Assembly: GCF_003751635.1 (NCBI RefSeq)
Contig: NZ_RJVI01000001.1
Coordinates: forward strand, 504,726 to 536,725
Origin: Inmirania thermothiophila
Lineage (GTDB): Bacteria > Pseudomonadota > Gammaproteobacteria > DSM-100275
Direction of reading: 5' to 3'
Length of the DNA: 32,000 bases
Numbering within the stretch: the first letter of the stretch is position 1; each line of letters opens with the position of its first letter. Shown piece by piece: positions 3,042-28,780 of the stretch. A program made the translations under genes and the position numbers. A model generated the notes under the pieces. That model had not been told where the DNA came from. It did no database searches and was given only the letters and a program-made list of their open reading frames with translations.

Positions 3042-3053
3042 GGGGGCACTCCG

Positions 3054-5916: not shown

Positions 5917-6152
5917 GGTGTGGATCTCCCTTTCACACGCGGTTCGGCAGGATGCAGGGCACGACGCGCCCGTTTCCCGGACACGCCCCTGCCCGTATCC
6001 CGTTTACGGCGGCCCCCGCCGGAACTGGATAGGAAGATGCCACTGGAGCGTGTAAGAACAGGCCTACAGCGCGGGCGCCGCGGTTCCCCGGGTGGCGCGA
6101 GGGGCGCCGATCGCGCATCATCCCGCAGGGATCGGGAGGGACCGGTTCGGGC

Positions 6153-6968
6153 ATGCGAAGGACCGTCTTCTTCATCTCGGGGCGCACGGGGATCACGGCG
6201 GAGACGCTGGGGCACGGGTTGCTGTCGCAGTTCGAGGGCATGGAGTTCGAGCAGGTGCCGCTGCCCTACGTGGACACGCCGGAGCGGGCGGTGGCGGCCT
6301 GCCGGCGCATCGACGCCGCGGCCGAGCGCGACGGTGTGCCGCCCATCGTCTTCAGCGCCCTCGCCGATCCCGTCATCCGCGACCGCGTGCGCCGCGCCCG
6401 CGGCGTGTTCTTCGACGTCTTCGACACCTTCATCCGCCCGCTGGAGCGCGAGCTGGGGGTGCGCGCGCTCTCCGCCCCCGGCCGCTCCCACGGGCTCGTG
6501 GACTATCAGGCCTACATGGCGCGGGTGGACGCCATCAACTACGTCCAGATGGGCGACGAGGCCGACCCGCGCCACCTCGATCGGGCCGACGTGGTCCTGC
6601 TCGGGGTCTCGCGCAGCGGCAAGACGCCGGCCTGCGTCTACCTGGCGCTGCAGTTCGGGATCCGCGCCGCCAACCGCACCCTCACCGAGGCCGAGCTCGA
6701 GGCGCAGCGCCTGCCGGCGGGGCTGGAGCCGTACCGCGACCGGCTCTTCGGGCTCACCGTCCGCCCCGAGCGGCTGGCGGAGATCCGCGCCGGGCGCGCG
6801 CCGGGCTCGCCCTACGCCGATGCCGAGCGCTGCCGGCGCGAGGTGGAGGCGGCCGAGACCCTGTTCTGCAACGAGGGCATCCCCTGCCTCGACGTCACCT
6901 GCATGTCGGTGGAGGAGATCGCCTCCACCGTGATCGAGGCCCGCGGCCTGCGGCGGCGGCTCTACTGA
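6153..6968 (+). CDS. Second PpsR/DUF299-family bifunctional kinase/pyrophosphorylase paralog, 271 aa
   Basis: 'FFISGRTGITAETLGHGLLSQFEG', P-loop 'GVSRSGKTPACVYLALQFGIRAAN', 'GLTVRPERLAEIRAGR' and 'SVEEIASTVIE' are present. By eye it is roughly half identical to the copy at 3054..3899 and less like E. coli PpsR. GGGAGGGA lies ~12 nt upstream. Confidence 0.9.
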   Translation: MRRTVFFISGRTGITAETLGHGLLSQFEGMEFEQVPLPYVDTPERAVAACRRIDAAAERDGVPPIVFSALADPVIRDRVRRARGVFFDVFDTFIRPLERELGVRALSAPGRSHGLVDYQAYMARVDAINYVQMGDEADPRHLDRADVVLLGVSRSGKTPACVYLALQFGIRAANRTLTEAELEAQRLPAGLEPYRDRLFGLTVRPERLAEIRAGRAPGSPYADAERCRREVEAAETLFCNEGIPCLDVTCMSVEEIASTVIEARGLRRRLY

Positions 6969-6969
6969 C

Positions 6970-7880
<911 letters not shown>

Positions 7881-7881
<1 letters not shown>

Positions 7882-8657
7882 TGGACTGGGGGCTGCCGAG
7901 GCCGGGCCGGGGGGCGCTCGCGGTGTGGCGGCGCAACCTCCTCGTCTGGCGCAAGCTCATGGGGGCGAGCCTCACCATCAACTTCGGTGAACCCTTCCTC
8001 TATCTGCTGGGCCTCGGCTACGGGCTCGGCTTCTTCATCGGCGACATGGCCGGGATGCCCTATCTCACGTTCCTCGCCACCGGCGTGGTGGCGGCCTCGG
8101 CGATGCAGACGGCGACCTTCGAGGGGATGTACTCGGTGTTCACGCGCATGGTGCCGCAGCGCACCTACGAGGCCATGCTGGCCGCGCCGCTCACCGTGGA
8201 CGACATCCTCGCCGGCGAGCTGCTGTGGTGCGCGAGCAAGGGGCTGCTGAGCGGGGTGGCGATCCTGGTGGTGGCCGCGGCCCTGGGGGCGGTGGGCGGG
8301 TGGGGCGCGCTGTGGGTGATCCCGGTGGTGTTCGTGGTGGGGCTCTGCTTCGCCGGGCCGGCGCTGGTGATGAGCGCGCTCTCGCCCAACTACGACTTCT
8401 TCGTCTACTACCAGACGCTGGGTCTCACACCCATGTTCATCCTGTGCGGGGTCTTCTACCCGGTGGACACCCTGCCGCCGGCGGTGCAGACCGCGGTGCA
8501 GGTGCTGCCCCTGACCCATGCGGTGGCGCTGGTGCGGCCCCTGGTGGCGGGGCTGGCGGTGGACGACGTGGGGTTGCACCTCGCGGTGCTCCTCGCCTAC
8601 GCGGCCGCGGGCTACTACCTCGCCGTGGTCCTCGTGCGCCGCCGCCTGCTCGTGTGA
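7881..8657 (+). CDS. ABC-2 family transporter permease (NodJ-like), 258 aa
   Basis: An internal ATG at 7881 in ORF 7572..8657 overlaps the ATPase stop (TGATG). The protein is polytopic and hydrophobic ('INFGEPFLYLLGLGYGLGFFIG...', 'VLPLTHAVALVRPL'), which is typical ABC-2 topology. Confidence 0.85.
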
Positions 8658-8661
8658 GCGC

Positions 8662-9264
8662 TCAGGCCGAGGCGATGCGTCGCGCCAGCCGCGCGTGCAG
8701 CGGGCTCGAGCGCGGGAAGTGGGCGAGCAGGAAGGCCATCTGGTCGGCCAGCACGCGCCGGCCCTGGAGGTAGACGTACTCGGCGTGGGTCGGGGTGAAG
8801 GGCACGGCGAGCAGCGTCATCCCCGCCTCCTCGGGGGTGCGTCCCGCCTTGTGGGTGTTGCAGCGTCTGCAGGCGGTGACGACGTTGTTCCAGCTGTCGG
8901 CGCCGCCGCGGCTGATGGGGGTGACGTGGTCGCGGGAGAGCTCCGCGGCCGGGAAGCGCCCGCCGCAGTAGAGGCAGAGGTAGGCGTCGCGCTTGAACAG
9001 GGCGCGGTTGTTGAGGGGCGGGACGTGATCGCGCCAGGCCCGCTCGCGCGGGTGGCCGTGGGTGGCGATGATGGAGCTGACCTCGATGAGGCTGCGCCGG
9101 CCGCTGCGGGCGTTGATGCCGCCGCGGATGCGGTAGAGCAGGGTGCCGCAGCTGTAGGCCACCTGGCCCAGATGGTAGAGCCGTACCGCCTCGCGATAGT
9201 CCACCCACTCCAGGGGCATCCCGGAGGGATCGGTCCGCAGCACCTGCTGGGCAAGGTCCGCCAT
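8662..9264 (-). CDS. HNH endonuclease with an uncharacterised ~100-aa N-terminal domain, 200 aa
   Basis: HNH/Zn motif: 'CLYCGGRF...SRDHVTPISRGGADSWNNVVTACRRCNTHK'. I prefer the start at ATG 9264 (MADLAQQ) over 9288, because an extended -10-like element (9275..9283) lies between the two ATGs. Confidence 0.8.
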   Translation of the reverse strand: MADLAQQVLRTDPSGMPLEWVDYREAVRLYHLGQVAYSCGTLLYRIRGGINARSGRRSLIEVSSIIATHGHPRERAWRDHVPPLNNRALFKRDAYLCLYCGGRFPAAELSRDHVTPISRGGADSWNNVVTACRRCNTHKAGRTPEEAGMTLLAVPFTPTHAEYVYLQGRRVLADQMAFLLAHFPRSSPLHARLARRIASA

Positions 9265-9274
9265 GCCGCCACCC

Positions 9275-9283
9275 AATCTAGCA
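9275..9283 (-). promoter_or_regulatory. Extended -10-like element TGcTAGATT upstream of the HNH gene
   Basis: The minus strand reads cgTGcTAGATTgggtggcggcATG. The same TGCTA-type motif recurs upstream of two other minus-strand genes and one plus-strand gene in this window. Confidence 0.35.
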
Positions 9284-9307
9284 CGCATGCGCCCGCGCGC
9301 GCATGCG
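9284..9307 (-). terminator. Hairpin downstream of dsrC (9-bp stem, 6-nt loop); possible terminator or processing site
   Basis: cgcatgcgc-ccgcgc-gcgcatgcg is a perfect inverted repeat between the dsrC stop (9366) and the HNH start. No U-tract follows on the minus strand. Confidence 0.3.
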
Positions 9308-9365
9308 GGTCCGATAATCCTTGGGCAGCGCCGGCGGCGCGAGGTTCGCGCCGCAGGGTGCGGGC

Positions 9366-9698
9366 TCAGACGCAGCCGGTGGGCTTGGGCAGCCCCGCGA
9401 TGCGGCAGGCCTGCTTGGCCGGCCCGTAGGGGAACAGGCCGTAGAGATAGCGGCTGTTGCCCTTCTCGGGGCCGTAGGTCTTGGCGAAAGACTTCTGCAG
9501 CTGGCGCACGTTGGGCACGGTGCCGGTCTCCTCGTAGCCTTGGCGCAGGAAGCGGATCACCTCCCAGTGGGCCTCGGTCAGCTTCAGCCCCTCGCGCTCG
9601 GCGAGGGCCTCGGCCAGGGACTCGCTCCAGTCCGAAAGGTTGCGCAGATAGCCCTCGGCGTCGGTCTCGATGCGGCGCCCGTCGATCTCGAACTCCAT
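9366..9698 (-). CDS. dsrC: DsrC-family sulfur-relay protein (DsrC/TusE), 110 aa
   Basis: The protein is DsrC/TusE-like over its full length. The C-terminal arm 'AKQACRIAGLPKPTGCV' carries both conserved cysteines (Cys-X10-Cys-Val), the DsrC signature; TusE has only the last Cys. A strong SD (GAGGAGG) precedes the ATG. Confidence 0.85.
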   Translation of the reverse strand: MEFEIDGRRIETDAEGYLRNLSDWSESLAEALAEREGLKLTEAHWEVIRFLRQGYEETGTVPNVRQLQKSFAKTYGPEKGNSRYLYGLFPYGPAKQACRIAGLPKPTGCV

Positions 9699-9756
9699 GC
9701 CGGCGTTCCTCCTCGCTGCGGGATCCCCCCGGCGCGGTACCGGGGTCTCGGGACGG

Positions 9757-9762
9757 AAGCTA
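9757..9762 (-). promoter_or_regulatory. Candidate -10 hexamer TAGCTT for dsrC
   Basis: The minus strand reads ggatTTAGCTTcc. Its upstream edge lies 29.5 bp from the centre of the TTGA-N6-TCAA box, which puts the box at about -41.5. Confidence 0.3.
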
Positions 9763-9784
9763 AATCCGAGCGCCCAGCCAGGAA

Positions 9785-9798
9785 TTGACCCAGGTCAA
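9785..9798. promoter_or_regulatory. CRP/FNR-family (FNR/FixK/Dnr-type) box TTGACccagGTCAA
   Basis: A perfect 5-4-5 palindrome matches the TTGA-N6-TCAA core. It lies in the 167-bp divergent region between dsrC (-) and the RNA ligase gene (+), and no -35 hexamer is evident for either flanking -10. Confidence 0.5.
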
Positions 9799-9822
9799 GC
9801 GGGAGCGGCATCCACCCCCCGC

Positions 9823-9828
9823 TATACT
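9823..9828 (+). promoter_or_regulatory. Candidate -10 hexamer TATACT for the RNA ligase gene
   Basis: This is a near-consensus -10, 38 nt upstream of ATG 9866. GAAGGAG (SD) lies between the two. The FNR-type box centre is 31.5 bp upstream of the hexamer. Confidence 0.4.
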
Positions 9829-9865
9829 CCACCGGGGATAGGCGAAGCCGCGAAGGAGCGGGCGC

Positions 9866-10969
9866 ATGGCAGGGAGCGGGATGGCCGCGCTGCGCGAGGC
9901 CGCGGGCGCGGCGGGCAAGCTCGCCGCCGAGGAGCACGAGGGGCTGCGCTACGAGCGCCTCGTGGACGACTGGCACGGGCTCGCCCGCGGCACGGTCTTC
10001 GCCGCCGGCATCGTGATCCCGGGCTATCCTCCCATCCCGCGCATCCTCCGCCTCGCCACGGGCCTTGCCGAGCGCTTCCCGGGCCCCTTCCGCGTGGAGG
10101 AGAAGATCGACGGCTACAACGTGCGCTACGCCCTCGTGGAGGGGCGGCTCCTCGGCTTCAGCCGCGGCGGCTTCGTCTGCCCCTTCGCCACCGACCGCGG
10201 GCCGGAGCTCTTCGACCCGGCGGTGCTGGAGGAGGCCCCGTCGCGGGTGCTCTGCGCCGAGCTCGCAGGCCCCGGCAATCCCTACAACATCGGCCGGCCT
10301 CCGGATCCGGTCGCGGACGTGGCCCTCTACGCCTTCGATCTGCTCGCCACGGACGGTTCCGGCTTCCTGCCCGCCGGGGAGCTGGATGCGCTGGCCGCGG
10401 CGGGGGCGGTGCGCCGCGCCCGCCTCCTCGGCCGGCACACCGCGGCGGACGTCGCCGCGCTGCGGACCCTGCTGCACCGGCTCGATGCGGAGCGCCGCGA
10501 GGGGGTGGTCTTCAAGGAGGACGGACCCCAGGGGCGGCGCGCCAAGTACACCACGGCGCGGGTGACGGTGGACGACCTGCGGGTGACGGGGGCGGAGCTC
10601 CTGGACCTGCCGCCGTGGTACTTCACGGGACGGCTGCTGCGGCTTGCGCTCTTCGTCGACGAGGAGGGGCTGCCGCGGGAGCGGCTCGCCGCCGAGATGG
10701 GGACGGCGCTGCTCGAGGGGATGCTGGATGCGGTGGCGCAGGTGCGCGACCACGGCCGCGTCGAGCACGCCTTCCGCTGCCGCTTCCGCGCGCGGGCCAA
10801 TGCCGAGCGCTTCGCGGCCATGTTGCGCGGGCGCGCCGCGGTGCAGGTTCTCGTCGACGGCATCGAGCCCGACGCCGAGGGCTACCACGTCCTGCGCTTC
10901 CGGCGCGTCTACCCGGCCATGACCGGGCTGCTCGCCAACGTCCTGCGCGGCGGCGCCATCGAGGACTGA
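9866..10969 (+). CDS. ATP-dependent RNA ligase, archaeal Pab1020/Rnl3-like family, 367 aa
   Basis: Covalent nucleotidyltransferase motifs are present: I 'RVEEKIDGYNVR' (Lys80, codon 10103..10105), 'GFSRGGFVCPF', III-like 'VLCAELAGPGNPY', IV 'EGVVFKE' and V 'AKYTT'. Length and motif order match the Pab1020 family. Confidence 0.8.
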   Translation: MAGSGMAALREAAGAAGKLAAEEHEGLRYERLVDDWHGLARGTVFAAGIVIPGYPPIPRILRLATGLAERFPGPFRVEEKIDGYNVRYALVEGRLLGFSRGGFVCPFATDRGPELFDPAVLEEAPSRVLCAELAGPGNPYNIGRPPDPVADVALYAFDLLATDGSGFLPAGELDALAAAGAVRRARLLGRHTAADVAALRTLLHRLDAERREGVVFKEDGPQGRRAKYTTARVTVDDLRVTGAELLDLPPWYFTGRLLRLALFVDEEGLPRERLAAEMGTALLEGMLDAVAQVRDHGRVEHAFRCRFRARANAERFAAMLRGRAAVQVLVDGIEPDAEGYHVLRFRRVYPAMTGLLANVLRGGAIED

Positions 10970-10977
10970 ACGCGGCC

Positions 10978-11568
10978 TCAGGGCGCGAAGTGCTCGATCC
11001 GGTTCTCGAGGATGCGGCGGAAGTGGCGCGGGTCGATGATCTTGACCCCGAGGCGGTCGGCCCAGCGCAGCAGGCCCTCGTCCGCCGAGACCACCACTCC
11101 GTCCACCTCGTAGGCGAGCAGGAGCACGTCGGCGTCCTCGCGGCTGTCGACGATGCCCTTGCGCAGGGCCTCGCGGTAGCGCTCGCGCAGGTGGTGCATG
11201 AGGCGCTCGGCGTCGCCCGCATCGACGCTCCGCCCGGCCAGGCGCATGTGCTCCTCGGCGATGCGCAGGCCGCGGTTGATGCGCTCGCGCACCTCCTCGA
11301 TGAACTCGTAGAGGATCTCGCTCGGCAGCTGCATGCCGAAGCGGCGCGGCGAACGGATGTAGACCACGGTCTCGAAGTCGGCGGCCACCTCGGCGAGGTC
11401 GCGCATGCGCCCGAGCTCCTCGTAGACCGAGATCGGCATGTAGAAGCGGGCGTGGGCGCGGGGGGCGAGCGCGACGAAGGCGGTGATGGCCCCGTGCGGC
11501 TCGTCGGCGAACTGCGCGTAGACGTCGGGGTTGGTGAACAGGCTGGTGTCGAGGACGTAGCTCTCCAT
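10978..11568 (-). CDS. PIN-domain protein of the 'RNA ligase partner, MJ_0950' family, 196 aa
   Basis: '[14 protein letters not shown]' supplies the PIN N-terminal Asp, followed by acidic residues in 'VYEELG' and 'VVSADEGLL'. I prefer the start at ATG 11568 (SD AAGGCGGAG upstream), because the upstream ATG at 11601 lies inside a -10-like hexamer. Confidence 0.75.
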
Positions 11569-11596
11569 CGCCGCCGCTCCGCCTTCGCCTGGGGCG

Positions 11597-11605
11597 AGCA
11601 TAGCA
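11597..11605 (-). promoter_or_regulatory. Extended -10-like element TGcTATGCT upstream of the PIN partner gene
   Basis: The minus strand reads cgTGcTATGCTcgcc. It gives a ~25-nt leader to ATG 11568 that includes an SD. Confidence 0.35.
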
Positions 11606-11627
11606 CGGCGCAGGCGGGCGCCGCGGC

Positions 11628-11636
11628 TGCTAGGAT
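11628..11636 (+). promoter_or_regulatory. Extended -10-like element TGcTAGGAT exactly 6 nt before ATG 11643 (possible leaderless start); AGGA could instead be an SD
   Basis: The plus strand reads gcTGcTAGGATggccccATG. Confidence 0.3.
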
Positions 11637-11642
11637 GGCCCC

Positions 11643-12427
11643 ATGTGCCTGATCCTCGTCGCCCACCGCGCCCACCCGCGCTGGCCCCTCGTCATCGCCG
11701 CCAACCGCGACGAGTTCCGCGACCGCCCGGCGGCGCCGGCGGCATGGTGGCGCGAGGACGCGCGGGTGCTCGCCGGGCGCGACCTCGCCGCCGGCGGGAC
11801 CTGGCTGGGGGTGCGCCGCGACGGGCGCTGGGCCGCGGTGACCAACGTCCGCGAGGGCCGGCGCGGGCGGCATCCGCGCTCGCGCGGCGAACTCGTCGCC
11901 CGCTACCTCCTCGGCGATGCGCCGCCGCGGGCCTTCCTCGCCGAGGCCCTCGCCGGGGGGGCGGCCTACGGCGGCTTCAACCTGCTCGTGGCCACCCCCG
12001 ACGAGGTCCTCTACGGCTCCAACCGCGGCCACGGCATCCACGCCCTCGCCCCGGGGGTGCACGGCCTCAGCAACGGCCGCCTCGACGCCCCCTGGCCCAA
12101 GGTGCGCAGGGGGCGGGAGGGCCTGCGGGCGCTGCTTGCGGGCGAGGGCCCGCGGGTCGAGGCGCTGATGGCGCTGCTTGCCGACCGTCGCGAGGCGCCC
12201 CCGGAGGCGCTGCCGGATACCGGCGTCGGCCCCGAACGGGAGCGGCGGCTTTCACCGCTCTTCATCGTCGGCGCCGACTACGGCACGCGCTGCTCCACGG
12301 TCCTGGTGGTGGACCGGGAGGGGCGGGCCTGCCTCGTGGAGCGCACCTGGGACGGCCGCGGCGAGGCGGTGGGCGAGTGCCGCCACGAGTTCGAGATCCC
12401 GGCCTTTGCTGCGGGGGAGGAGGTGTC

Positions 12428-12431
<4 letters not shown>
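11643..12431 (+). CDS. NRDE-family protein (DUF833, TANGO2-like), 262 aa
   Basis: N-terminal 'MCLIL' (Cys2), the eponymous 'AANRDEF', and 'GGTWLG' are present. Confidence 0.85.
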
Positions 12432-19733: not shown

Positions 19734-20534
19734 ATGAGGCGGTTTCTCGTCATCGGGGCGACGGGCGTGGCCGGGGGGGCCGCGATCCGCGCGGTGCGGC
19801 GGTTCTTCGGCGAGGAGGCCGAGGTCACGGGGGTCTGGTACGGCCGGCCGGGCAGCGTCGAGGCGGTGGAGGGCGTCGACCGGCTGGTCTTCGGCGACGC
19901 CGCCGAGCCGCAGACCCTGGAGGCGGTGGCCCGCGAGGCCGGCGAGCGCTTCGACTGGTGCTTCTTCGCCACCGCGATGGGCGAGGTGGGGTTCCCGATC
20001 CGGGAGGCGACCCCGGAGCAGATCGCGCAGTCCAACCGGCTCTCCTTCGATCCGCTGCCGCGCATCGAGCAGCGCTTCGAGGTGGGCACCCTGGTCGCCT
20101 ACTCGACCTTCTTCACCCTGCGCCACCAGCGCATCACCTACGGCGCCATGGGCCACTCCAAGCACGCCATCGAGCAGTGGGCGGTCCAGCCCGGGCGGAG
20201 CCGTCACCTGGTGATCCGCGCCGGCGCCTTCCGCTCGGCCTCGAGCCAGGCCATCAAGCTGCTGGTGCGGCGCCGCGCAAGGCAGCTCGCGCAGGCGGAG
20301 GATCCGCTGCTGCGCAGCTACTTCGAGGGGACGAGCCCGGCCGAGGCGGTGGAGCGGCTGGAGCGGGCGGTGCTCGAGGAGGAGCGGGCCACCTACGGCG
20401 ACACCGGCACCGACGCCGCCGCCCTCGAGGCGGCGCACGTGCACCTCTTCAACGGCGTGCACGGACCTTTCGTCAACGTCTGCGGCCGCCGCATCTGGGA
20501 GAGCGCCGAGCCGCAGCCCCTGCCCACGGAGTGA
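19734..20534 (+). CDS. Rossmann-fold NAD(P)-binding oxidoreductase, FabI-like (Tyr-x6-Lys), function unknown, 266 aa
   Basis: An internal ATG at 19734 lies in ORF 19587..20534. It has the N-terminal 'VIGATGVAGGA' dinucleotide-binding motif. 'YGAMGHSKHAIE' aligns with the enoyl-ACP reductase FabI motif 'YNVMGLAKASLE' (Y-x6-K). The rest of the protein is divergent. Confidence 0.5.
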   Translation: MRRFLVIGATGVAGGAAIRAVRRFFGEEAEVTGVWYGRPGSVEAVEGVDRLVFGDAAEPQTLEAVAREAGERFDWCFFATAMGEVGFPIREATPEQIAQSNRLSFDPLPRIEQRFEVGTLVAYSTFFTLRHQRITYGAMGHSKHAIEQWAVQPGRSRHLVIRAGAFRSASSQAIKLLVRRRARQLAQAEDPLLRSYFEGTSPAEAVERLERAVLEEERATYGDTGTDAAALEAAHVHLFNGVHGPFVNVCGRRIWESAEPQPLPTE

Positions 20535-21034: not shown

Positions 21035-21472
21035 TCACTTCTTTGCGAGCGCGTCCTTCAGCGCCTTGAGGGCGGTGAGGCGGATCACGTTCTGGGCCGG
21101 CCTCGCGGGGATCTGGATCGGCTCGCCGGTGCGCGGGTTGCGCCCCGTGCGCGCCTTGGTCGCCGGCCGGCGCACGCGGCGGATGCGCACGCCCGTCTCG
21201 GGGATGGTGAACTCGCCCGAGCCGCGCGGCTTCATGTGGCGGTGGATGAGGCTGGCCAGGCTCTCGAACACGGCGCCCACCTGCGCGCGGGTCAGGCCCG
21301 TCTCCTCGGCGATGGCCGCGATCACCTGGGCCTTGGTCTGCTTCTCGGCGATGGCGCCGGTGGCGGGCTTGCGGGGGGCGGCCTTCGCGGCGGCGGCTCG
21401 GGTCCGGCGGAGCGCAGGGGTCTTCTTCGTGCTCGCGGCGCTGCGGGTGGTCGTCTTCTTCTTCGCGGCCAT
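21035..21472 (-). CDS. HU/IHF-family DNA-binding protein with ~40-aa Lys/Ala/Thr/Arg-rich N-terminal tail, 145 aa
   Basis: An internal ATG at 21472 lies in ORF 21035..21556. The HU core is 'LTRAQVGAVFESLASLI...GEFTIPETG...ARTGRNPRTGEPIQIPA'. The N-terminal tail is 'MAAKKKTTTRSAASTKKTPALRRTRAAAAKAAPRKP'. Confidence 0.85.
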   Translation of the reverse strand: MAAKKKTTTRSAASTKKTPALRRTRAAAAKAAPRKPATGAIAEKQTKAQVIAAIAEETGLTRAQVGAVFESLASLIHRHMKPRGSGEFTIPETGVRIRRVRRPATKARTGRNPRTGEPIQIPARPAQNVIRLTALKALKDALAKK

Positions 21473-21546
21473 GGGCTGCTCCCTTGGTGGTGTCGTGGGC
21501 TCTGCACGGAGCCTGCTGCGATGCGGCTCACGTTTTTTTGGCGCTA

Positions 21547-21573
21547 AACATAGCACATTGCAGGGCGGGTCAA
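21547..21573 (-). promoter_or_regulatory. Sigma70-type promoter for the HU-like gene: -35 TTGACC (21568..21573), 15-nt spacer, extended -10 TGcTATGTT (21547..21555)
   Basis: The minus strand reads gTTGACCcgccctgcaatgTGcTATGTTtagcgccaaaaaaacg. The -35 overlaps the ggt stop codon. This is the AT-richest short stretch in the window. Confidence 0.5.
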
Positions 21574-23120
21574 CGGCGTCTGCGCGCGCGCACGATGCGG
21601 CCCACGCCGCCGCGGCGGGGATCGCCGTGGGCGGCGAGGCGGCCGCGGTCGCAAAGGACCGCGTGCACTCCGCCGAAGAAGAGGTTGCGCTCGGCCCACA
21701 GGCGCAGCGCCCCGGCGCCCTCGAGGGCCGCCACGGCCTCCGGGTCGTAGCCCGCCTCGAGGTCGATGCGGCCGCCCTCGCAGTGCATGCGCGGGGCGTC
21801 CACGGCCGCCGCGAGGGACATCCGATGGTCGACCAGGTTGACCGCGAACTGCAGAAGCGCCGAGCGGATCCGGTTCGAGCCGCCGGAGCCGAAGGCGACG
21901 ACGGTCCCGTCTCGGGCGAGCAGGCTCGGCGCCATCATCGAGCCCATGCGCCGGTCGGTGGGCCAGCGGTGGAAGCCGCCGGGGTTGAGATCCTCCTCGC
22001 CCAGCATGTTGTTGAGCATGATCCCGGTGCCCGGCACCACGTGGCCGCAGCCCTCGCCGTTGGTGACGGTGAGGGCGGCGAGGTTGCCCTCGGCGTCGGC
22101 GATGCTCACGTGGGTGGTGCCCCGCCGGGCCTGGGGTGCGGCGAGGGCGTCGGCGAGCAGGGCCTCGGCGTCGGCGCCGTGACGCCGCCGCCGGGCGTCG
22201 GCGGCGGCCAGCGCCGCCTGCAGACGCAGGGCCTCGGCGCGGCTGCCGAAGGGCGCGGGCGGGGTGCGCGCAAGATGCGCCAAGGCGCCGGCGACGAGGG
22301 CGCCGCCGCAGGATGGCGGCGGGTTGGTGTGGAGGCGGGCGTCGCGGTAGGCGAGCGTGAGGGGTGTGCGGCGCACGACGCGGTAGGCGGCGAGGTCCTC
22401 GGCCTGCAGATGGCCGCCGGCCTCGGCCGAGAGCGCGGCGATGCGGCGGGCGATCTCGCCGCGGTAGAACAGCCCCTCGCCCTCGCGCACCAGCGCCTCC
22501 AGGGTGTCGGCGAGCGCCGGCATGCGCAGCAGCTCGCCGCGGCGGGGAAGGCGCGGCGGCTGCGCCCGCGGATGGGCGAAGACCGCGCGCGCACCCGGCG
22601 TGGCCAGATAGATTACGCCGACGATGTCGAAGACGTAGGCCTGGAAGGCGTTCAGGCGCACGCCGCGGCGCGCCAGTGCGAGGGCGGGCTCGGCCAGCCT
22701 CGCCAGCGGCAGGCGCGCGAGATCGCGGTGGATGGCGAACAGCCCCGCCACCGTGCCCGGGGTGGCGGCGGCGCCGAGGCCGATGTGGAACTCCTGGGTG
22801 GTGGTGCCGAAGTCGGCGACGATGGGATGGAAGTCCACCTCGTGCGCGGGGCGCCGGCGCCGCGGGGTGTGGACGAAGAAGTCGTAGAGCACGGGCGGGC
22901 GGCGCGCCGGGGCGGCGAGAAGATAGCCGCCGCCGCCGAGGGAGGCGAGCACCGGTTCGGCCACGCAGGCGGCCAGGTGCGCCGCGATCGCGGCGTCGAA
23001 GGCGTTGCCGCCGGCGCGCAGCGCCTCGACGGCGGCCTCGGCTGTGGCCGGGTGGCCGGCGGCGACGGCACCCAGCGGCGGGCGGCGTGGCGGCATCGCG
23101 GGTGCGTCCCCCGGGGGCAT
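21570..23120 (-). CDS. ggt: Gamma-glutamyltransferase family protein (no obvious signal peptide), 516 aa
   Basis: 'RRGTTHVSIADAEGNLAALTVTNGEGCGHVVPGTGIMLNNMLGEEDLNP' contains the autoprocessing Thr and GGT motifs. An alternative start at ATG 23096 (M9) is possible. Confidence 0.85.
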   Translation of the reverse strand: MPPGDAPAMPPRRPPLGAVAAGHPATAEAAVEALRAGGNAFDAAIAAHLAACVAEPVLASLGGGGYLLAAPARRPPVLYDFFVHTPRRRRPAHEVDFHPIVADFGTTTQEFHIGLGAAATPGTVAGLFAIHRDLARLPLARLAEPALALARRGVRLNAFQAYVFDIVGVIYLATPGARAVFAHPRAQPPRLPRRGELLRMPALADTLEALVREGEGLFYRGEIARRIAALSAEAGGHLQAEDLAAYRVVRRTPLTLAYRDARLHTNPPPSCGGALVAGALAHLARTPPAPFGSRAEALRLQAALAAADARRRRHGADAEALLADALAAPQARRGTTHVSIADAEGNLAALTVTNGEGCGHVVPGTGIMLNNMLGEEDLNPGGFHRWPTDRRMGSMMAPSLLARDGTVVAFGSGGSNRIRSALLQFAVNLVDHRMSLAAAVDAPRMHCEGGRIDLEAGYDPEAVAALEGAGALRLWAERNLFFGGVHAVLCDRGRLAAHGDPRRGGVGRIVRARRRR

Positions 23121-23121
23121 G

Positions 23122-23147
23122 CCCTACAATCGGCCTCGATTGTAGGG
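23122..23147. promoter_or_regulatory. Perfect 11-4-11 palindrome CCCTACAATCG-gcct-CGATTGTAGGG; candidate operator and/or overlapping divergent -10 elements
   Basis: Read directly from the sequence. It occupies half of the 50-bp ggt / multidomain-gene divergent region. TACAAT occurs on the plus strand (23125..23130) and on the minus strand (23139..23144). Confidence 0.5.
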
Positions 23148-23170
23148 GACGGCGGCGGCGGGTGCGACGG

Positions 23171-26100
23171 ATGAGCGGCCGGGCGTCCCCTTCCCCCGGG
23201 AGCAGGAGCGTGGCCGGAGAGTCCCGGATCGACGAGCGGCTGCTGGGCGAGCTGGTGCCGGTGAACGGCCTTTCGGCGGGCAGCCGCCGCCAGCTCGCGG
23301 AGAAGGCCGAGCTCCTCGCGCTCGCCCCGGGCGACGTCCTCTTCCGCCGCGGCGAGCGCGACGGCCGCACCCTCTACCTCCTCGAGGGCGAGATCGAGCT
23401 CACCGACGGCCGCGGCGGCCGGGTGCAGGTGCGCGCGGGCACCGCCACCGCCCGCCACCCCCTCGCCCAGCATCAGCCGCGCCAGGTCACCGCCACCGCC
23501 CGCACGCCGGCGCGGGTGCTGGCGGTGGAGACGGCGCTGCTGGACATGCTCCTCACCTGGGATCAGTCGCCCGACCACCAGTACGAGGTGGAGGAGATCG
23601 CCGAGGACGACGGCGACTGGATGACGCGGATGCTGCAGAACCGCGTCTTCCTCAAGCTGCCGCCGGCCAACATCCAGCAGATCATCATGCGCATGGAGGA
23701 CGTGCGCGTGCGCGCCGGCGACGTGGTGGTCCGCCAGGGGGAGGAGGGCGACTACTACTACTACATCCGCAAGGGGCGGGCGGTGGTCCTGCGCAGGCCC
23801 TCGCCCGGCGCCCCCGAGGTGCGCCTGGCCGAGCTCGGCGAGGGCGACGGCTTCGGCGAGGAGGCGCTCGTCGCCGACGAGCGGCGCAACGCCACCGTGC
23901 GCATGCTCACCGACGGCCACCTCATGCGCCTGGCCAAGAAGGACTTCGTCCAGCTCATCCGCGATCCGCTGCAGAACGCGGTGGACTACTACAAGGGCGA
24001 GTCCATCGTCGCCTCCGGCGGGGCGTGGCTCGACGTGCGCCTGCCCGACGAGCACGCCAACGCCCACATCGCGGGCAGCATCAACATCCCCCTCCCGGCG
24101 CTGCGGCTGCAGCTCTCGAGGCTCCAGCGCGGGCGCCCGTACGTGATCTACTGCGACACCGGCCGCCGCAGTGCGGTGGCCGCCTTCATCCTCAGCGAGA
24201 AGGGCTACGAGGCCCATGTCCTCGCCGGCGGCCTCCAGGCCCTGCCACCGGAGGTGTTCCTGAGCAGCGCCCGTCCGCACGAGGAAGGGCCGGTGGTCAA
24301 GCCGCAGGCCGCGGCCGCGCCGCGGGCGGCGGACGAGGCGGCGGAGGCGTTGCGGCGGCGGGCCGAGGAGGAGGCCGGGCGGGTGCTCGCCGAGGCCCGG
24401 CGGGCGGCCGAGGAGGAGGCGCGCCGGCTCCTCGAGGAGGCGCGCCGGGCGATGGAGGAGGTGCGGGCCGAGCAGGCCCGCGCGAGGGCGGAGGCCGAGC
24501 GGCTCGCGCAGCTCAAGGAGACCCTCGAGGGGGAGCGGCGCGCCCTCGAGGAAGCGGCCGCCGCGCACACGGCCGCGCGCGACGCCGCGCTGACCGAGGC
24601 GCGGGCGGAGGCCGAGCGGCTGCGCCGGCGCCACGACGAGATGGAGGCCGCCTGGGTGGCCTCGCAGCAGGAGGTGGCCCGCCTCGAGGAGGAGCTGGCG
24701 CGGCTGCGGGAGGCGCGGGCGCAGGCCGCCTCCGACATGGACCGCGCGCGGCGCGAGGCGGACGAGGCGCGCCGCGGGCAGGAGGAGGCCGCGGCGGCGC
24801 TGCGCCGGCGCGCCGACGAGGCGGAGGCGGCGCGGCGCGAGCTCGAGGCGCTGCGGGAGCGGCTCGAGGCCGTCGAGGCCGAGCGCGAGCGTCTCGCGGC
24901 CGAGGCCGGGGAGCTTCGGTCGGCGACCGAGCTGGAGGAGGCGCTGCGGGAGGCGGAGGCCGCGCGCGCGCGGGCCGAGCAGCGCGCCGCCGAGCTGGAG
25001 CGCTCGCTCGACGAGCAGCAGGCCGAGGTGCGGCGGCTCGCCGCCGAGCTCGCCGCCGCCACCGACCGCATCCACGAGCTGGAGGTGGAGAAGGAGGAGC
25101 TCTGGCGGGCGCGCAAGGAGGCCGAGCAGGAGGTGGCGCAGGCCCGGCGTGAGGCGGTGGAGGTGATCCAGCGCGCCCACCAGGAGGCCGAGGCCCTCAA
25201 GCGCGAGCTCAAGGCCGCGCGCAGCGAGGCCGAGGAGGAGATCCGCCGCCGCCTGGAGGCGGAGACCAGCCGGCTGCAGGCGCAGCTGCGCTCGCAGGTC
25301 CGCGCCGCCGAGCGCCGAGGGGCCGCGGCGGCCCGCACACCCGGACGCCGCAGGGTGGCGGCGGCGCTGGCGGTGGCGGTGACGGCGGCGGTGGCGGCGG
25401 CGGTGGCGGCGGGTGCCCTGTGGGCCTGGCGCGCGGGGCTCGTGCGCCTGCCGGATGCGGCCGACGTGGCGGCACCGCCGGCGCCGCCGGCGGAGGAGCC
25501 GGGCCGCGCCGGCCCGCAGCCTGCGCCGGAGCCGCGGCCGGCGGCCCGGGCGGCGCCGGCCCCGCCGCGGAGCGCTCCGCCGGCCGAGGCGCGGGCACGC
25601 CCCGGCCGGCGTTTCCGCGACCCGCTGCGCAACGGCGGGCTCGGGCCCGAGATGGTGGAGATCCCCGGCGGCCGCTTCGTCATGGGCAGCGGCGAGGACG
25701 AGCCCTACCTCAACGAGCGCCCGGCGCACGAGGTGCGCCTGGCCGCCTTCGCCGTCGGCCGCACCGAGGTCACCTTCGAGGACTACGACCGCTTCGCCCA
25801 GGCCACGGGGCGGCCGCTGCCGGACGACGAGGGCTGGGGCCGCGGGCGTCAGCCCGTGATCAACGTCTCGTGGGAGGATGCCGCGGCCTATGCGGCGTGG
25901 CTCTCGCAGGAGACCGGCCACGTCTACCGCCTGCCCAGCGAGGCGCAGTGGGAGTATGCGGCCCGCGCCGGCACCGGCGGCATCTACTGGTGGGGCAGCT
26001 TCATCGGGGTCGGCAACGCCAACTGCTTCAACTGCGGCAATCCCTTCGACGGCGCCCGCCCGGTGGCGGTGGGAAGCTTCCCGGCCAACCCCTTCGGCCT

Positions 26101-26332
26101 GCACGACACCGCCGGGAATGTGGCCGAGTGGGTGCAGGACTGCTATCACCCGAGCTACGAGGGGGCGCCTGCGGACGGGCGGCCCTGGGAGGAGCCGGGG
26201 TGCGCGGAGCGGGTCGTGCGCGGGGGCTCCTTCACCAGCGCCGCCAAGAACCTGCGCGTGACCGTGCGCGAGCGCTTCGCGCCCGACGTGCGGGCGGAGA
26301 ACATCGGCTTCCGGCTCGTGCGCCTGCGCTGA
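23171..26332 (+). CDS. Multidomain membrane protein, 1053 aa: degenerate cNMP-binding-like + canonical cNMP-binding + rhodanese + ~330-aa coiled coil + 1 TM + Pro-rich linker + FGE-sulfatase (SUMF1/PvdO-like) domain
   Basis: An internal ATG at 23171 lies in ORF 22364..26332. Approximate domains: cNMP-like 1 at nt 23240..23554; cNMP 2 at nt 23642..23965 (PBC 'GFGEEALVADERRNATV'); rhodanese at nt 24017..24241 (active-site loop 'YCDTGRRS', Cys328 codon 24152..24154); E/A/R-rich coiled coil at nt ~24323..25315; TM '[25 protein letters not shown]' at nt 25355..25429, preceded by RRR; Pro-rich linker at nt ~25448..25615; FGE-sulfatase at nt 25646..26329 ('RPAHEV', 'VSWEDAAAYAAWL', 'YRLPSEAQWEYAARAG', 'GLHDTAGNVAEW', 'RVVRGGSF', 'GFRLV'). 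Confidence 0.85.
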   Translation: MSGRASPSPGSRSVAGESRIDERLLGELVPVNGLSAGSRRQLAEKAELLALAPGDVLFRRGERDGRTLYLLEGEIELTDGRGGRVQVRAGTATARHPLAQHQPRQVTATARTPARVLAVETALLDMLLTWDQSPDHQYEVEEIAEDDGDWMTRMLQNRVFLKLPPANIQQIIMRMEDVRVRAGDVVVRQGEEGDYYYYIRKGRAVVLRRPSPGAPEVRLAELGEGDGFGEEALVADERRNATVRMLTDGHLMRLAKKDFVQLIRDPLQNAVDYYKGESIVASGGAWLDVRLPDEHANAHIAGSINIPLPALRLQLSRLQRGRPYVIYCDTGRRSAVAAFILSEKGYEAHVLAGGLQALPPEVFLSSARPHEEGPVVKPQAAAAPRAADEAAEALRRRAEEEAGRVLAEARRAAEEEARRLLEEARRAMEEVRAEQARARAEAERLAQLKETLEGERRALEEAAAAHTAARDAALTEARAEAERLRRRHDEMEAAWVASQQEVARLEEELARLREARAQAASDMDRARREADEARRGQEEAAAALRRRADEAEAARRELEALRERLEAVEAERERLAAEAGELRSATELEEALREAEAARARAEQRAAELERSLDEQQAEVRRLAAELAAATDRIHELEVEKEELWRARKEAEQEVAQARREAVEVIQRAHQEAEALKRELKAARSEAEEEIRRRLEAETSRLQAQLRSQVRAAERRGAAAARTPGRRRVAAALAVAVTAAVAAAVAAGALWAWRAGLVRLPDAADVAAPPAPPAEEPGRAGPQPAPEPRPAARAAPAPPRSAPPAEARARPGRRFRDPLRNGGLGPEMVEIPGGRFVMGSGEDEPYLNERPAHEVRLAAFAVGRTEVTFEDYDRFAQATGRPLPDDEGWGRGRQPVINVSWEDAAAYAAWLSQETGHVYRLPSEAQWEYAARAGTGGIYWWGSFIGVGNANCFNCGNPFDGARPVAVGSFPANPFGLHDTAGNVAEWVQDCYHPSYEGAPADGRPWEEPGCAERVVRGGSFTSAAKNLRVTVRERFAPDVRAENIGFRLVRLR

Positions 26333-26333
26333 G

Positions 26334-27206
26334 ATGGCGCGCGGGCCGATCCTCGTCGTGGGCAACGTGGTGGTGGACCTCGTCCTCGAGGTGGCGCCGC
26401 TGCCGCGCCCGGACGAGGAGGTGCGGGCGGATGGGGCCTGGCTCGACGTGGGCGGCAACGGCGCCAACGTCGCCCGCGTCCTCGCCGCCCTCGGCCGCGA
26501 GGTGGCGCTGGCGGCGGTGCTGCCGGGGCCGCCCTGGGAGGGGCTGGTGCGCGGGGCGCTGGCCGGGGTGGAGCTCGCGCACGCGCTGGCGGCACCCGGT
26601 CAGGCGCTGTCGGCGGTGCTCCTCGACCGCGGCGCCGGTACCCGCACCATCGTCCACCACCGCGCCCTGCCCGAATACCCCGCCGAGGCCCTCGCCGCGC
26701 TGGCCGGCCCCCGGTGGGGGTGGGCCCACATCGAGGCCCGCGACGGCCGCATCCAGGCGGGCCTTGTGGCGGGGCTGCGCGAGGCCGGGGTGGCGGTCTC
26801 GGTGGAGGTGGAGAAGGAGCGGCCGGGGCTCGAGGCGCTGCTCGCCGAGGCGGCGGTGGCGGTCTTCTCGCGCCCCTTCGCGGAGGGCCGCGGCGCGCGC
26901 GGGCCGGAGGATGCCGCGGCCCGCCTCGCGGGGCTCGCCCCGGGCGCGGTGGTGGTGGCGACCTGGGGGGCGGAGGGCTGCGCGGTGCGGCTCGCCGACG
27001 GCCGCGTGGTGCGGGTGGCGGGGGAGCCGGTGGCGGGTCCCGCCGACACCCTCGGCGCCGGCGACGTCTTCCAGGCCGGGCTCGTGGCCGCGCTGGCGCG
27101 GGGCGCGGACGCGGTGACGGCGGCGCGGGAAGGGGCGGCGCTCGCCGCGCGGCGCTGCCGCACGCGCGGCCTCGGCCGCTTCGTCGCCGCCCTGCGGGCC
27201 CGCTAG
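26334..27206 (+). CDS. PfkB-family carbohydrate/ribokinase-like kinase, 290 aa
   Basis: 'ILVVGNVVVDLVL', 'GGNGANVA' and the anion-hole/ATP motif 'DTLGAGDVFQAG' are present. It starts 1 nt after the upstream stop. Confidence 0.8.
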   Translation: MARGPILVVGNVVVDLVLEVAPLPRPDEEVRADGAWLDVGGNGANVARVLAALGREVALAAVLPGPPWEGLVRGALAGVELAHALAAPGQALSAVLLDRGAGTRTIVHHRALPEYPAEALAALAGPRWGWAHIEARDGRIQAGLVAGLREAGVAVSVEVEKERPGLEALLAEAAVAVFSRPFAEGRGARGPEDAAARLAGLAPGAVVVATWGAEGCAVRLADGRVVRVAGEPVAGPADTLGAGDVFQAGLVAALARGADAVTAAREGAALAARRCRTRGLGRFVAALRAR

Positions 27207-27215: not shown

Positions 27216-27983
27216 ATGCCCGCCTCTGCCTCGCCCCTGCGTGCCGCCGCCATCGAGGTCCGCGGCCTGACCAAGCGCTACGGCGACGTGGTGGCCGTCG
27301 ACGGGGTCGGCTTCGGCATCGCGCACGGTACGGTGTGCGCGCTGCTCGGCGGCAACGGCGCGGGCAAGACCACGACCCTGGCGATGCTGCTCGGGCTGCT
27401 CGAGCCGAGCGCCGGCGAGGTGCGGGTGCTGGGCGCGGACATGCGCCGCGAGCGCCACCGCGTGCTGTCGCGGATGAACTTCTCCTCGCCCTACGTGGAC
27501 CTGCCCCAGCGGCTGACGGTGCGGGAGAATCTCACCGTCTTCGGCCATCTCTACGGGCTCGCGGACGTGCGCCGCCGCATCGAGGAGCTGGCGGAGCTGT
27601 TCGATCTCGGCCCGCTGCTGCATCGGCCCCACGGGACGCTCTCGGCCGGCCAGCGCACGCGGGTGGGGCTGGCCAAGGCGCTGCTGAACCGGCCCGAGGT
27701 GCTGCTCCTGGACGAGCCCACGGCCTCGCTCGACCCGGACACGGCGGACCGCCTGCGCGGGCTGCTGCTCCAGTACCGGCGCGAGAGCGGGGCGACGATC
27801 CTGCTCGCCTCCCACAACATGCCGGAGGTGGAGCGGCTGTGCGACCAGGTGCTGATGATGCGCGCCGGGAGCATCGTCGACCGCGGCACGCCGCGCGAGC
27901 TGCTGGCCCGCTACGGGCGGCGCGACCTCGAGGAGGTCTTCCTCGACATCGCCCGCGGCAGGCGCGCGGAGGCGGTGCCGTGA
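27216..27983 (+). CDS. ABC transporter ATP-binding protein (ABC-2 exporter type), 255 aa
   Basis: Walker A 'GGNGAGKTTT', signature variant 'LSAGQRTRV', Walker B 'VLLLDEPTASLD' and 'ASHNMPEVE' are present. Confidence 0.9.
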   Translation: MPASASPLRAAAIEVRGLTKRYGDVVAVDGVGFGIAHGTVCALLGGNGAGKTTTLAMLLGLLEPSAGEVRVLGADMRRERHRVLSRMNFSSPYVDLPQRLTVRENLTVFGHLYGLADVRRRIEELAELFDLGPLLHRPHGTLSAGQRTRVGLAKALLNRPEVLLLDEPTASLDPDTADRLRGLLLQYRRESGATILLASHNMPEVERLCDQVLMMRAGSIVDRGTPRELLARYGRRDLEEVFLDIARGRRAEAVP

Positions 27984-28780
27984 GGGGGTCGCCGGCGCGC
28001 CGGGTGGCCGCCATGGTGCTGCGCTACCTCTACCTCATGCGCCGCTCCTGGCCGCGGCTGCTCGAGCTCGCCTACTGGCCGACGGTGCAGATGGTGCTGT
28101 GGGGCTTCATCACCCGCTTCCTGCTCACCAACAGCACCTGGCTGGTGCAGGCGGCGGGGGCGCTGATCGCGGCGGTGCTGCTCTGGGAGGTGCTCTTCCG
28201 CGGCCAGCTCGGCGTCTCCCTCGCCTTCATGGAGGAGATGCACTCGCGCAATCTGGGCCACCTCTTCGTCAGCCCCCTGCGCCCGCAGGAGCTGGTGGCG
28301 GCCTTCCTCGTCATCAGCCTCGTGCGCACCTTGATCGGCGTCGGCACCGCGGCGCTGCTGGCCATCCCCCTCTACCACTACTCGATCTTCTCCATGGGGC
28401 CGGCCCTGGTGGCCTTCTTCGCCTGCCTCCTGGTGATGGGCTGGGCCATCGGCCTGATGGTCTCCGCCCTCGTGCTGCGCTACGGCCTCGGCGCCGAGAG
28501 CATGGCCTGGGTGGCCATCTTCGCGGTCGCCCCGGTGAGCGGGATCTACTACCCCGTCTCGGTGCTTCCCGAGTGGCTGCGTCCGGTGGCCTGGGTGCTG
28601 CCCTCGAGCCACGTCTTCGAGGGGATGCGTGCGCTGCTGTTCGAGGCCCGCTTCGACGCCGGCCTCATGGGCACGGCGCTCCTCCTCGACGCCCTCTGGC
28701 TCGCCCTCGGCGCGGGCCTCTTCCTCGCCGCCTTCCGCGTCGCCCGCCGCGACGGGCTGCTGCTGCGTGTGGGAGAATAG
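27980..28780 (+). CDS. ABC-2 family transporter permease, ~266 aa
   Basis: GTG 27980 overlaps the ATPase stop (GTGA), and an alternative ATG lies at 28013. The protein is polytopic and hydrophobic ('YWPTVQMVLWGFIT', 'VAPVSGIYYPVSVLPEWL', 'LPSSHVFEGMR'). Confidence 0.8.
   Translation: MRGSPARRVAAMVLRYLYLMRRSWPRLLELAYWPTVQMVLWGFITRFLLTNSTWLVQAAGALIAAVLLWEVLFRGQLGVSLAFMEEMHSRNLGHLFVSPLRPQELVAAFLVISLVRTLIGVGTAALLAIPLYHYSIFSMGPALVAFFACLLVMGWAIGLMVSALVLRYGLGAESMAWVAIFAVAPVSGIYYPVSVLPEWLRPVAWVLPSSHVFEGMRALLFEARFDAGLMGTALLLDALWLALGAGLFLAAFRVARRDGLLLRVGE

Follow-up and report, generated by a model that had tools for sequence, protein, structure and literature searches.

In this study, we followed up a prediction made for a 32,000-nucleotide stretch of the genome of Inmirania thermothiophila (contig NZ_RJVI01000001.1; "the window" below means the whole of this 32-kb stretch), in which a single plus-strand gene appeared to encode a membrane protein joining cyclic-nucleotide-binding (CNB) domains, a rhodanese domain, a long helical rod and an FGE-like domain. 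The reading that we favour, with a probability of about 0.4, is that this protein is a homodimeric tether anchored in the inner membrane, whose business end is a rhodanese head gated by cyclic nucleotide monophosphates (cNMPs). What carries this reading is the anatomy of the protein, its conservation and modularity within a large family, and the loss from its C-terminal domain of the catalytic residues of both FGE and EgtB. Pfam matches, AlphaFold2 models and sequence motifs recovered all the domains of the original prediction in the order given. Each part is a known domain type, and the arrangement of transmembrane helix, linker and C-terminal FGE-like domain is itself known but barely studied; as the prediction had supposed, full-text literature searches for the architecture, the CNB-rhodanese module, the domain combination and the relatives found no paper describing such a protein.

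The architecture is nevertheless not rare and belongs to a large, vertically inherited gammaproteobacterial family. A protein search returned more than 110 clusters with all three Pfam domains (1100-1830 aa), mostly from uncultured Gammaproteobacteria and with Thiogranum and hydrothermal-vent samples among the sources. In our collection of 251 sequences, 156 carry both the N-terminal CNB-CNB-rhodanese module (N-module) and the FGE-like domain. When 1.84 billion representatives were scanned with phmmer, 1391 N-module proteins (50%-identity representatives) reached E <= 1e-30; in the best 150 of these 1391 matches the whole module was aligned, nearly always at the N-terminus. The module also occurs in stand-alone forms of ~350 aa (13 of 251 sequences; L001, L002, L004-L006, L009 and others) and in a soluble-rod class of ~800-1100 aa (P0143, P0190, P0163, P0117 and about 25 others), in which it precedes a long E/R/A-rich helix with no transmembrane helix. 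Proteins of the latter class are complete on contigs of up to 305 kb, show a weaker heptad periodicity and share the tail motif ..ANQxAHLERIKxRAxAARxAAKAHNQALIDELAAxLR, which we considered as a hidden feature of the FGE-bearing class and rejected, as it had no match in 123 sequences. Because three architectures share the N-module, the CNB-CNB-rhodanese head appears to be the autonomous, constant functional unit of the family, and the C-terminal end an interchangeable address. In one related locus (L082:19163-19268 onward), a stand-alone 351-aa CNB-rhodanese paralogue lies ~7 kb downstream of a fused 1755-aa gene and adjoins DUF6763.

The gene itself is real. At ~75% G+C, the window contains long open reading frames (ORFs) in every frame, and such a composition does create long spurious ones, so that two or more genes fused by a frameshift or an assembly error had to be considered; no support for such an artefact was found, and we give it practically no credence. 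The predicted frame is stop-free, and G+C by codon position (~0.98 at third positions, GC3; ~0.5 at second positions, GC2) marks the plus strand as coding in an unbroken signal from ~23160 to 26332. NCBI annotates a protein that is 100% identical, and 156 independent sequences, drawn from assemblies of NCBI, JGI, ENA and Logan, have the same architecture. We therefore regard the artefact as refuted by homologues and the fusion as genuine. Further upstream, at 21570-23120, codon-position G+C assigns the coding signal to the minus strand, where a gamma-glutamyltranspeptidase (GGT) gene lies, and the overlapping plus-strand frame is non-coding. The predicted length of 1053 aa fared less well than the gene. 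The NCBI protein, also from Inmirania thermothiophila and named 'SUMF1/EgtB/PvdO family nonheme iron enzyme', has 1040 aa and starts at GTG 23210; this codon has a GGGAG Shine-Dalgarno sequence 7 nt to its 5' side and gives an N-terminus of the same length as that of the homologues. Taken together, the NCBI call, the Shine-Dalgarno sequence and the match to the family N-terminus indicate that GTG 23210 is probably the true start. Residue numbers throughout follow the 1053-aa numbering from ATG 23171.

The predicted cytoplasmic head and its stalk

An AlphaFold2 model of residues 1-377, built from a 44-sequence alignment (pLDDT 85.5, pTM 0.52), consists of two CNB barrels followed by the rhodanese domain, and Foldseek returned the tandem CNB regions of PKG and of the PKA regulatory subunit (PKA-R) as its best PDB matches (E ~1e-20 to 1e-18). 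The first barrel, CNB-A, had been predicted as a degenerate cNMP-binding-like barrel, and it does lack the Gly-Glu of a phosphate-binding cassette (PBC). It is more than a degenerate remnant: a second Pfam cNMP_binding stretch, modelled strands at 47-120 and a weak internal similarity to CNB-B all identify it, and it has invariant residues of its own, P97, P103 and R104 ('QPRQ'). Since the model matches the tandem-CNB regulators PKG and PKA-R (E 4e-20), CNB-A is, as modelled, a true CNB fold that is conserved rather than decayed. The second domain, CNB-B, is canonical, as predicted. It scores 95 bits in total against PF00027 (cut-off 27.5) and combines the beta-barrel fold with a PBC that has both the Gly-Glu and the phosphate-binding Arg; the cassette aligns to the PKG/PKA sequence 'FGEAAL..RSATI', and 44 homologues all share its F228, G229, E230, R239, N240 and A241. 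The PBC of CNB-B thus looks intact and would be predicted to bind cAMP or cGMP.

The rhodanese domain likewise bears the catalytic-type Cys loop that had been predicted. It scores 52 bits against PF00581 (cut-off 22.2), its C328 is invariant, and CDTGRRS at 328-334 is found in nearly all of 120 homologues. The loop has six residues with the catalytic-type Cys first, which is the sulfurtransferase length of PspE and RhdA, whose catalytic loops read CNAGRQS and CQTHHRS, respectively. The fold and the catalytic Cys are both present; a sulfurtransferase activity is putative. The nearest solved rhodanese is PspE (2JTQ). Whereas PspE, GlpE and RhdA share this fold and this kind of loop, the rhodanese of the window protein is one domain among several and comes after two CNB domains. 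A similar relation holds for PKA-R and the regulatory region of PKG, which also have two consecutive CNB folds, the second with the canonical PBC pattern FGE..AL....R.A. Unlike them, however, the window protein has no kinase or inhibitor sequence, its CNB-A is without the PBC Gly-Glu, and its output domain is a rhodanese fused right after the C-terminal helix of CNB-B. A PDB search found no solved structure with a CNB-CNB-rhodanese architecture.

Behind the head follows a rod, for which a length of tens of nm had been predicted. Its 339 residues contain no proline, are dominated by A (27%), E (22%), R (19%) and L (9%), and show a hydrophobic periodicity at 2/7 (3.5 residues) with z = 10.2 relative to shuffled sequences; weak NCBIfam matches to SMC coils were also found. 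The best reading is a coiled coil, which at 0.148 nm per residue would be ~50 nm long, in line with the prediction. A single alpha-helix (SAH), whole or partial, is disfavoured, as only ~45% of the residues are charged, hydrophobic residues make up 15% in addition to 27% Ala, and the 3.5-residue periodicity is strong. Across 94 homologues of the FGE-bearing class, rods measure 356-1009 aa (median ~805), which makes the Inmirania rod the shortest. These rods contain a median of 11 prolines; in homologues with a less extreme composition the 2/7 periodicity has z = 11-18. No other part of the protein is so poorly conserved or so variable in length within the family, and only a motif A.RLR.EAE is kept ~90 residues before the transmembrane helix in most members.

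The single transmembrane helix, predicted to place the N-terminus inside the cell, follows an RRR sequence in the window protein. A transmembrane segment is present in all 94 homologues, with the family consensus R.G...GL..GL..G...AG...W, whose small-xxx-small motifs are of the dimerisation type. Lys and Arg are more frequent before than after this helix in 81 of the 94 homologues, the reverse holding for two. The protein contains five Cys, all invariant: C328 in the rhodanese and C952, C955, C991 and C1011, which all sit in the C-terminal domain. Such a distribution would be expected if the head is cytoplasmic and the C-terminal domain is periplasmic and bears disulfides, and an N-in/C-out topology is thus supported, on sequence statistics only. 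The Pro-rich linker was found as predicted; in the family it has a median of 17% Pro and ranges from 12 to 179 aa.

The C-terminal FGE-fold domain

The predicted FGE-like domain is complete as a fold. Its match to PF03781 spans profile positions 3-255 of 255, its AlphaFold2 model is confident (pLDDT 93, pTM 0.91), and Foldseek gives TM-scores of 0.71-0.77 to FGE structures; the nearest structure is PvdO 5HHA (TM-score 0.85, 37% identity; phmmer 8e-39). This completeness does not extend to the catalytic Cys pair or to metal ligands. In the FGE of S. coelicolor, two active-site Cys in the loop ..LCHDSYC.. bind Cu(I). When the window protein is aligned to 6MUJ/2Q17, the FGE catalytic loop GGSYLCHDSYCNRYRV pairs with GGSFT---SAAKNLRV, with both Cu-binding Cys absent and three residues deleted, and the family consensus at this position is RGGSYxSPxxxLR. 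Because the Cu-binding pair is deleted, the domain cannot be an FGE/SUMF1 enzyme. Nor is it EgtB-like, as the C-terminal domain has no invariant His (its His are at 853, 917, 978 and 993) and Pfam detects no DinB domain in the protein; the EgtB/OvoA/SenA-type NCBIfam models give 73 and 66 bits where 360 and 420 are required. Membership of the PvdO equivalog family can also be rejected: NF051459 scores 169.9 bits against a cut-off of 500, the domain is part of a transmembrane protein, and no pvd genes lie in the window or in eight related loci. Judged from sequence, the 'nonheme iron enzyme' of the NCBI name is unsupported.

PvdO is the most informative comparison. Both proteins have the FGE fold without the FGE Cys pair, C991 and C1011 correspond to C224 and C244 of PvdO, and PvdO is periplasmic. 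PvdO is, however, a small soluble protein encoded in pvd clusters, whereas the domain studied here forms the ectodomain, at the C-terminus, of a membrane protein of 1040 aa and has an additional invariant CxxC that is absent from PvdO. This CxxC belongs to a family-specific invariant motif, A-N-C-F-x-C-G, in a loop that reads 'ANIWQG' in FGEs. The domain is conserved rather than hypervariable, with 48-67% identity among homologues, and we rejected the idea that it is a target of a diversity-generating retroelement (DGR): no pair of variable and template repeats was found, within the window, 25568-26332 is matched only by low-complexity, GC-rich repeats, and no reverse transcriptase occurs among the scanned neighbour genes. 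With a conserved domain and no such repeat pair, any ligand should be conserved too.

Related ectodomains occur on other signalling proteins. Among the matches listed in a profile scan of genome contigs, relatives at 35-54% identity each stand at the C-terminus of a differing cytoplasmic part (Table 1), and most follow a transmembrane helix and a Pro-rich linker. The closest of these listed relatives (L012, L015, L027) are 47-54% identical, keep the CxxC and score 320-340 bits against our C-domain profile, compared with 384 for the window protein. The combination of an A-x-C-x-x-C domain with a transmembrane helix and a Pro-rich linker is common to the window protein, L015, L025 and L027; in L012 the CxxC domain is present and the translated ORF has no recognisable transmembrane helix. 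In line with published work, in which the FGE-sulfatase (FGS) domain is always C-terminal and is read as a ligand-binding C-type-lectin fold (PMC7159879; PMC10907252), its presence on kinases, phosphatases and STAND NTPases forms the pattern of a sensor rather than of an enzyme, and marks the ectodomain as a putative reusable extracytoplasmic binding or sensor module in Gammaproteobacteria. A non-enzymatic FGE-like binder is documented in the type VI secretion immunity protein Tsi3 (bioRxiv 10.1101/2021.05.21.445229). The window protein shares with the FGS-bearing Ser/Thr kinases, PP2C phosphatases and STAND NTPases the sequence of transmembrane helix, Pro-rich linker and C-terminal FGE-like domain, but differs from them in its cytoplasmic part, where a very long coiled coil carries a tandem-CNB-rhodanese head, and in having neither DGR diversification nor a defence-system match. 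The same scan brought up a 2054-aa ORF from Candidatus Parabeggiatoa (L011:881-7042) that encodes six TIR domains, one of which also matches a ThsB-like model; these are combined with a coil of highly repetitive 'EREKAKQAQATAEEQTRLAEQER' sequence, and the FGE-like domain at the C-terminus has no CxxC.

Function and alternative explanations

To explain how these parts might work together, we propose that two copies pair through the rod as a parallel coiled-coil dimer, ~50 nm long here and up to ~150 nm in relatives, held together by the coil and by the small-xxx-small motifs of the transmembrane helix. The periplasmic lectin-fold domain, with two stabilising Cys pairs, would bind a conserved envelope or periplasmic ligand and so fix or cluster the protein at defined sites, as the ectodomain seemingly does on kinases, PP2C phosphatases and STAND NTPases; the deleted FGE catalytic loop, the missing invariant His and the varied proteins to which the domain is fused all argue for such a binder. 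In the head model, the C-terminal helix of CNB-B (256-267) continues directly into the rhodanese domain, so that cAMP or cGMP bound in the PBC of CNB-B would be expected to move this helix and thereby expose or occlude the persulfide site at Cys328. The second messenger would then switch sulfur transfer, or the capture of a partner by the rhodanese, at a defined distance from the membrane.

The rod in this proposal is a spacer and not a signal wire. Of the two roles that the original prediction had offered for it, the structural tether fits better than an allosteric connection between the head and the periplasm. A signal is unlikely to pass along the rod, given that its sequence conservation is the lowest and its length variation the greatest in the protein; the flexible Pro-rich linker outside the membrane and the occurrence of the head without an anchor in paralogues speak further against such transmission. 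For the same reasons we consider it quite improbable that the protein is a classical transmembrane receptor, in which a periplasmic ligand would send a signal along the coil to alter cNMP binding or the rhodanese, or the signal would run from the inside out. Such a receptor would be well served by an unbroken heptad helix from head to membrane and by the retention of the A.RLR.EAE motif near the membrane; it is hard to reconcile with a rod that varies nearly three-fold in length, is almost unconserved in sequence and contains a median of 11 prolines in homologues, with stand-alone paralogues whose N-module has neither rod nor membrane anchor, and with the flexible linker that separates the ectodomain from the transmembrane helix.

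Several considerations weigh against the tethered, cNMP-gated rhodanese. Beyond the anatomy, we infer every step of it. With 48-67% identity, the ectodomain equals the head in conservation, and its invariant CxxC could mean redox or metal chemistry instead of passive binding; PvdO, which is closest to it, acts as an oxidation factor by genetic evidence (PMC6206403). The interface between CNB domains and rhodanese is only tentatively modelled (pTM 0.52). A hairpin fold of the rod is conceivable and would leave the head beside the membrane. Finally, the conserved neighbours (HU-like, TerB, PfkB, Rieske, ABC-2) indicate no pathway, and the window contains no cyclase gene.

Two further alternatives place the function elsewhere in the protein. 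One, unlikely in our judgement, is a pure scaffold or landmark of the PodJ, FimV or HubP kind, in which the periplasmic domain is an anchor, rod and head recruit clients in a cAMP-dependent manner, and the rhodanese is a docking surface only and carries no sulfur. PodJ of Caulobacter and FimV/HubP of Pseudomonas and Vibrio each cross the inner membrane once, bind the envelope through a periplasmic domain and recruit signalling proteins with a long cytoplasmic region, and FimV is linked to cAMP signalling. The window protein has the predicted layout of such a polar organiser (cytoplasmic coiled coil, one transmembrane helix, periplasmic binding domain); its rod is long and variable, and its housekeeping neighbourhood, together with the missing PADLOC match and the lack of an N-module on phages and plasmids, suggests a role in core cell biology. 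A rhodanese used only for docking would, however, not be expected to keep its Cys and CDTGRRS across more than 100 clusters at ~40% overall identity. Moreover, Pfam and NCBIfam revealed no sequence similarity to PodJ, FimV or HubP domains, and the periplasmic domain is FGE-like and not of a LysM or peptidoglycan-binding type. The other alternative, which we hold to be slightly less likely still, makes the protein a membrane-tethered periplasmic redox enzyme, a PvdO-like domain with a CxxC whose cytoplasmic part regulates only its abundance or position. PvdO, the closest relative of the domain by all three measures given above, is required for dihydropyoverdine oxidation according to genetics, and yet the purified protein had neither cofactor nor activity (PMC6206403). 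The four invariant Cys, which include the CxxC absent from PvdO, and the high conservation of the C-terminal domain also suit an enzyme. Contrary to this, the NCBIfam PvdO score (170 against a cut-off of 500) and the lack of pyoverdine genes nearby set the protein apart from PvdO, the loop that bears the FGE catalytic residues is shortened, and the same ectodomain recurs on kinases, phosphatases and STAND NTPases in the manner of a sensor.

A more far-reaching version of the tethered-rhodanese reading, which we think improbable as a whole, sees the family as a device by which sulfur-oxidising Gammaproteobacteria couple their sulfur trafficking to second messengers. The periplasmic CxxC domain would sense or capture a redox-active, sulfur- or metal-containing species of the envelope and so cluster the protein, the stalk would set the cytoplasmic depth of a cAMP-gated persulfide rhodanese, and sulfane sulfur would pass to or from cytoplasmic relay proteins of the TusA, DsrE or Dsr type; paralogues that stand alone or carry a soluble rod would represent the switch without its tether.

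To our knowledge, few bacterial effectors of cAMP or cGMP have been characterised besides CRP-type transcription factors. If the tethered, cNMP-gated rhodanese is correct, the family would add a non-transcriptional cNMP effector with an enzyme-type rhodanese output positioned by a 50-150 nm stalk, and could reveal a link between second messengers and sulfur metabolism. In sulfur-oxidising and sediment Gammaproteobacteria the stalked form is conserved and yet is annotated only by a generic, unsupported name, which a function would correct. It would also provide a first function for the CxxC subtype of the FGE-like ectodomain common to kinases, phosphatases and STAND NTPases.

Feature coordinates and genomic neighbourhood

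Table 1. Coordinates of the fused gene and its parts, of neighbouring elements in the window, and of related ectodomains on other contigs
Feature	Position	Strand	Details
Whole coding sequence	23171..26332	+	1053 codons from ATG 23171; stop-free translation
CNB-A	23228..23575	+	residues ~20-135; barrel without canonical PBC Gly-Glu; family-invariant P97, P103, R104
CNB-B	23618..23974	+	residues ~150-268; canonical cyclic-nucleotide-binding domain; PF00027 at 178-264
CNB-B PBC	23849-23899	+	residues 227-243, GFGEEALVADERRNATV
Rhodanese domain	23987..24265	+	residues ~273-365; PF00581 at 286-357; PspE/GlpE NCBIfam matches
Rhodanese active-site loop	24152-24172	+	C328-DTGRR-S334
Helical rod	24323..25339	+	residues 385-723; proline-free, A/E/R/L-rich; predicted coiled coil ~50 nm
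Transmembrane helix	25355..25429	+	residues ~729-753; single, after RRR; Kyte-Doolittle maximum 2.4
Pro/Ala-rich periplasmic linker	25430..25645	+	residues ~754-825; ~25% Pro
PvdO-like FGE-fold (C-type-lectin-like) domain	25646..26323	+	residues 826-1051; PF03781, E 1.8e-60
Invariant CxxC, C952-x-x-C955	26024-26035	+	plus invariant C991, C1011 (family alignment)
PfkB-family kinase gene	26334..27206	+	PF00294; only sub-threshold NCBIfam matches
Perfect 11-bp inverted repeat	23122..23147		CCCTACAATCG-gcct-CGATTGTAGGG; divergent gap between GGT gene and fused gene, ~50-90 bp
FGE-like ectodomain on PP2C phosphatases	L027:5044-7116, L015:8765-10720		after transmembrane helix
FGE-like ectodomain on Hanks-type kinases	L018:8537-10744, L025:9026-10948		after transmembrane helix
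FGE-like ectodomain on nSTAND1 NTPase	L017:1902-4136		after transmembrane helix
FGE-like ectodomain on short coiled coils only	L007, L008, L010

Nine loci, that of the window included, share a gene order of TerB, a divergent HU-like gene and the fused gene, then PfkB and Rieske genes (each of the two downstream in 6 of the 9), followed at a greater distance by an ABC-2 transporter, DUF6763 and DjlA. In the window, the PfkB gene begins 2 nt past the stop of the fused gene, with no terminator-like site between the two, and it is probably co-transcribed with the fused gene; PfkB is immediately downstream in 5 of the 8 related loci as well. The conserved neighbourhood looks like a vertically inherited housekeeping block. 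As a clue to function we discarded it, since the HU-like, TerB, GspA/B-like, S8 peptidase, PfkB, Rieske, ABC-2, DUF6763 and DjlA genes point to no pathway. A defence system or mobile element was also rejected: PADLOC had no match for the window protein, the PfkB kinase or the HU-like protein, and the N-module (residues 14-377), used as a query, matched nothing in the phage collection and, in plasmids, only an unrelated rhodanese at 20% coverage.

The palindrome in front of the fused gene occurs once in the window and has a relatively high A+T content for this genome; none of 100 shuffles produced a match by chance. Its absence from 88 related loci rules it out as a conserved operator; it may serve as an operator specific to this species. 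The HU/IHF-like gene (21035-21556, minus strand) is divergently linked to the fused gene in 8 of the 9 loci, and its product in the window has an N-terminal extension of ~70 residues (HU domain 74-170 of 173), unless its start has been miscalled. Between the DUF3179 and TerB genes lies a 266-aa ORF (19734-20534, plus strand) with a strong coding signal and no Pfam or NCBIfam match, and a 263-aa gene with no recorded Pfam match takes the same position in a related locus (L081).

Elsewhere in the window, a pair of ABC_tran and ABC-2 permease genes occurs twice, at 6970-8657 and at 27216-28780, the two being linked by repeat D3; the second copy is the one that belongs to the conserved neighbourhood of the fused gene. 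Two paralogous PpsR-type kinase/pyrophosphorylase genes (3036-3899 and 6153-6968; ~72% nucleotide identity, repeats D1/D4) enclose a 678-aa ORF (3970-6003, minus strand) with good GC3 and no Pfam match. Finally, genes for an HNH endonuclease (minus strand), a Pab1020-type RNA ligase (plus), a PIN_5 ribonuclease (minus) and a TANGO2-family protein (plus) occupy 8662-12431, a cluster that may be an RNA-repair or stress island.

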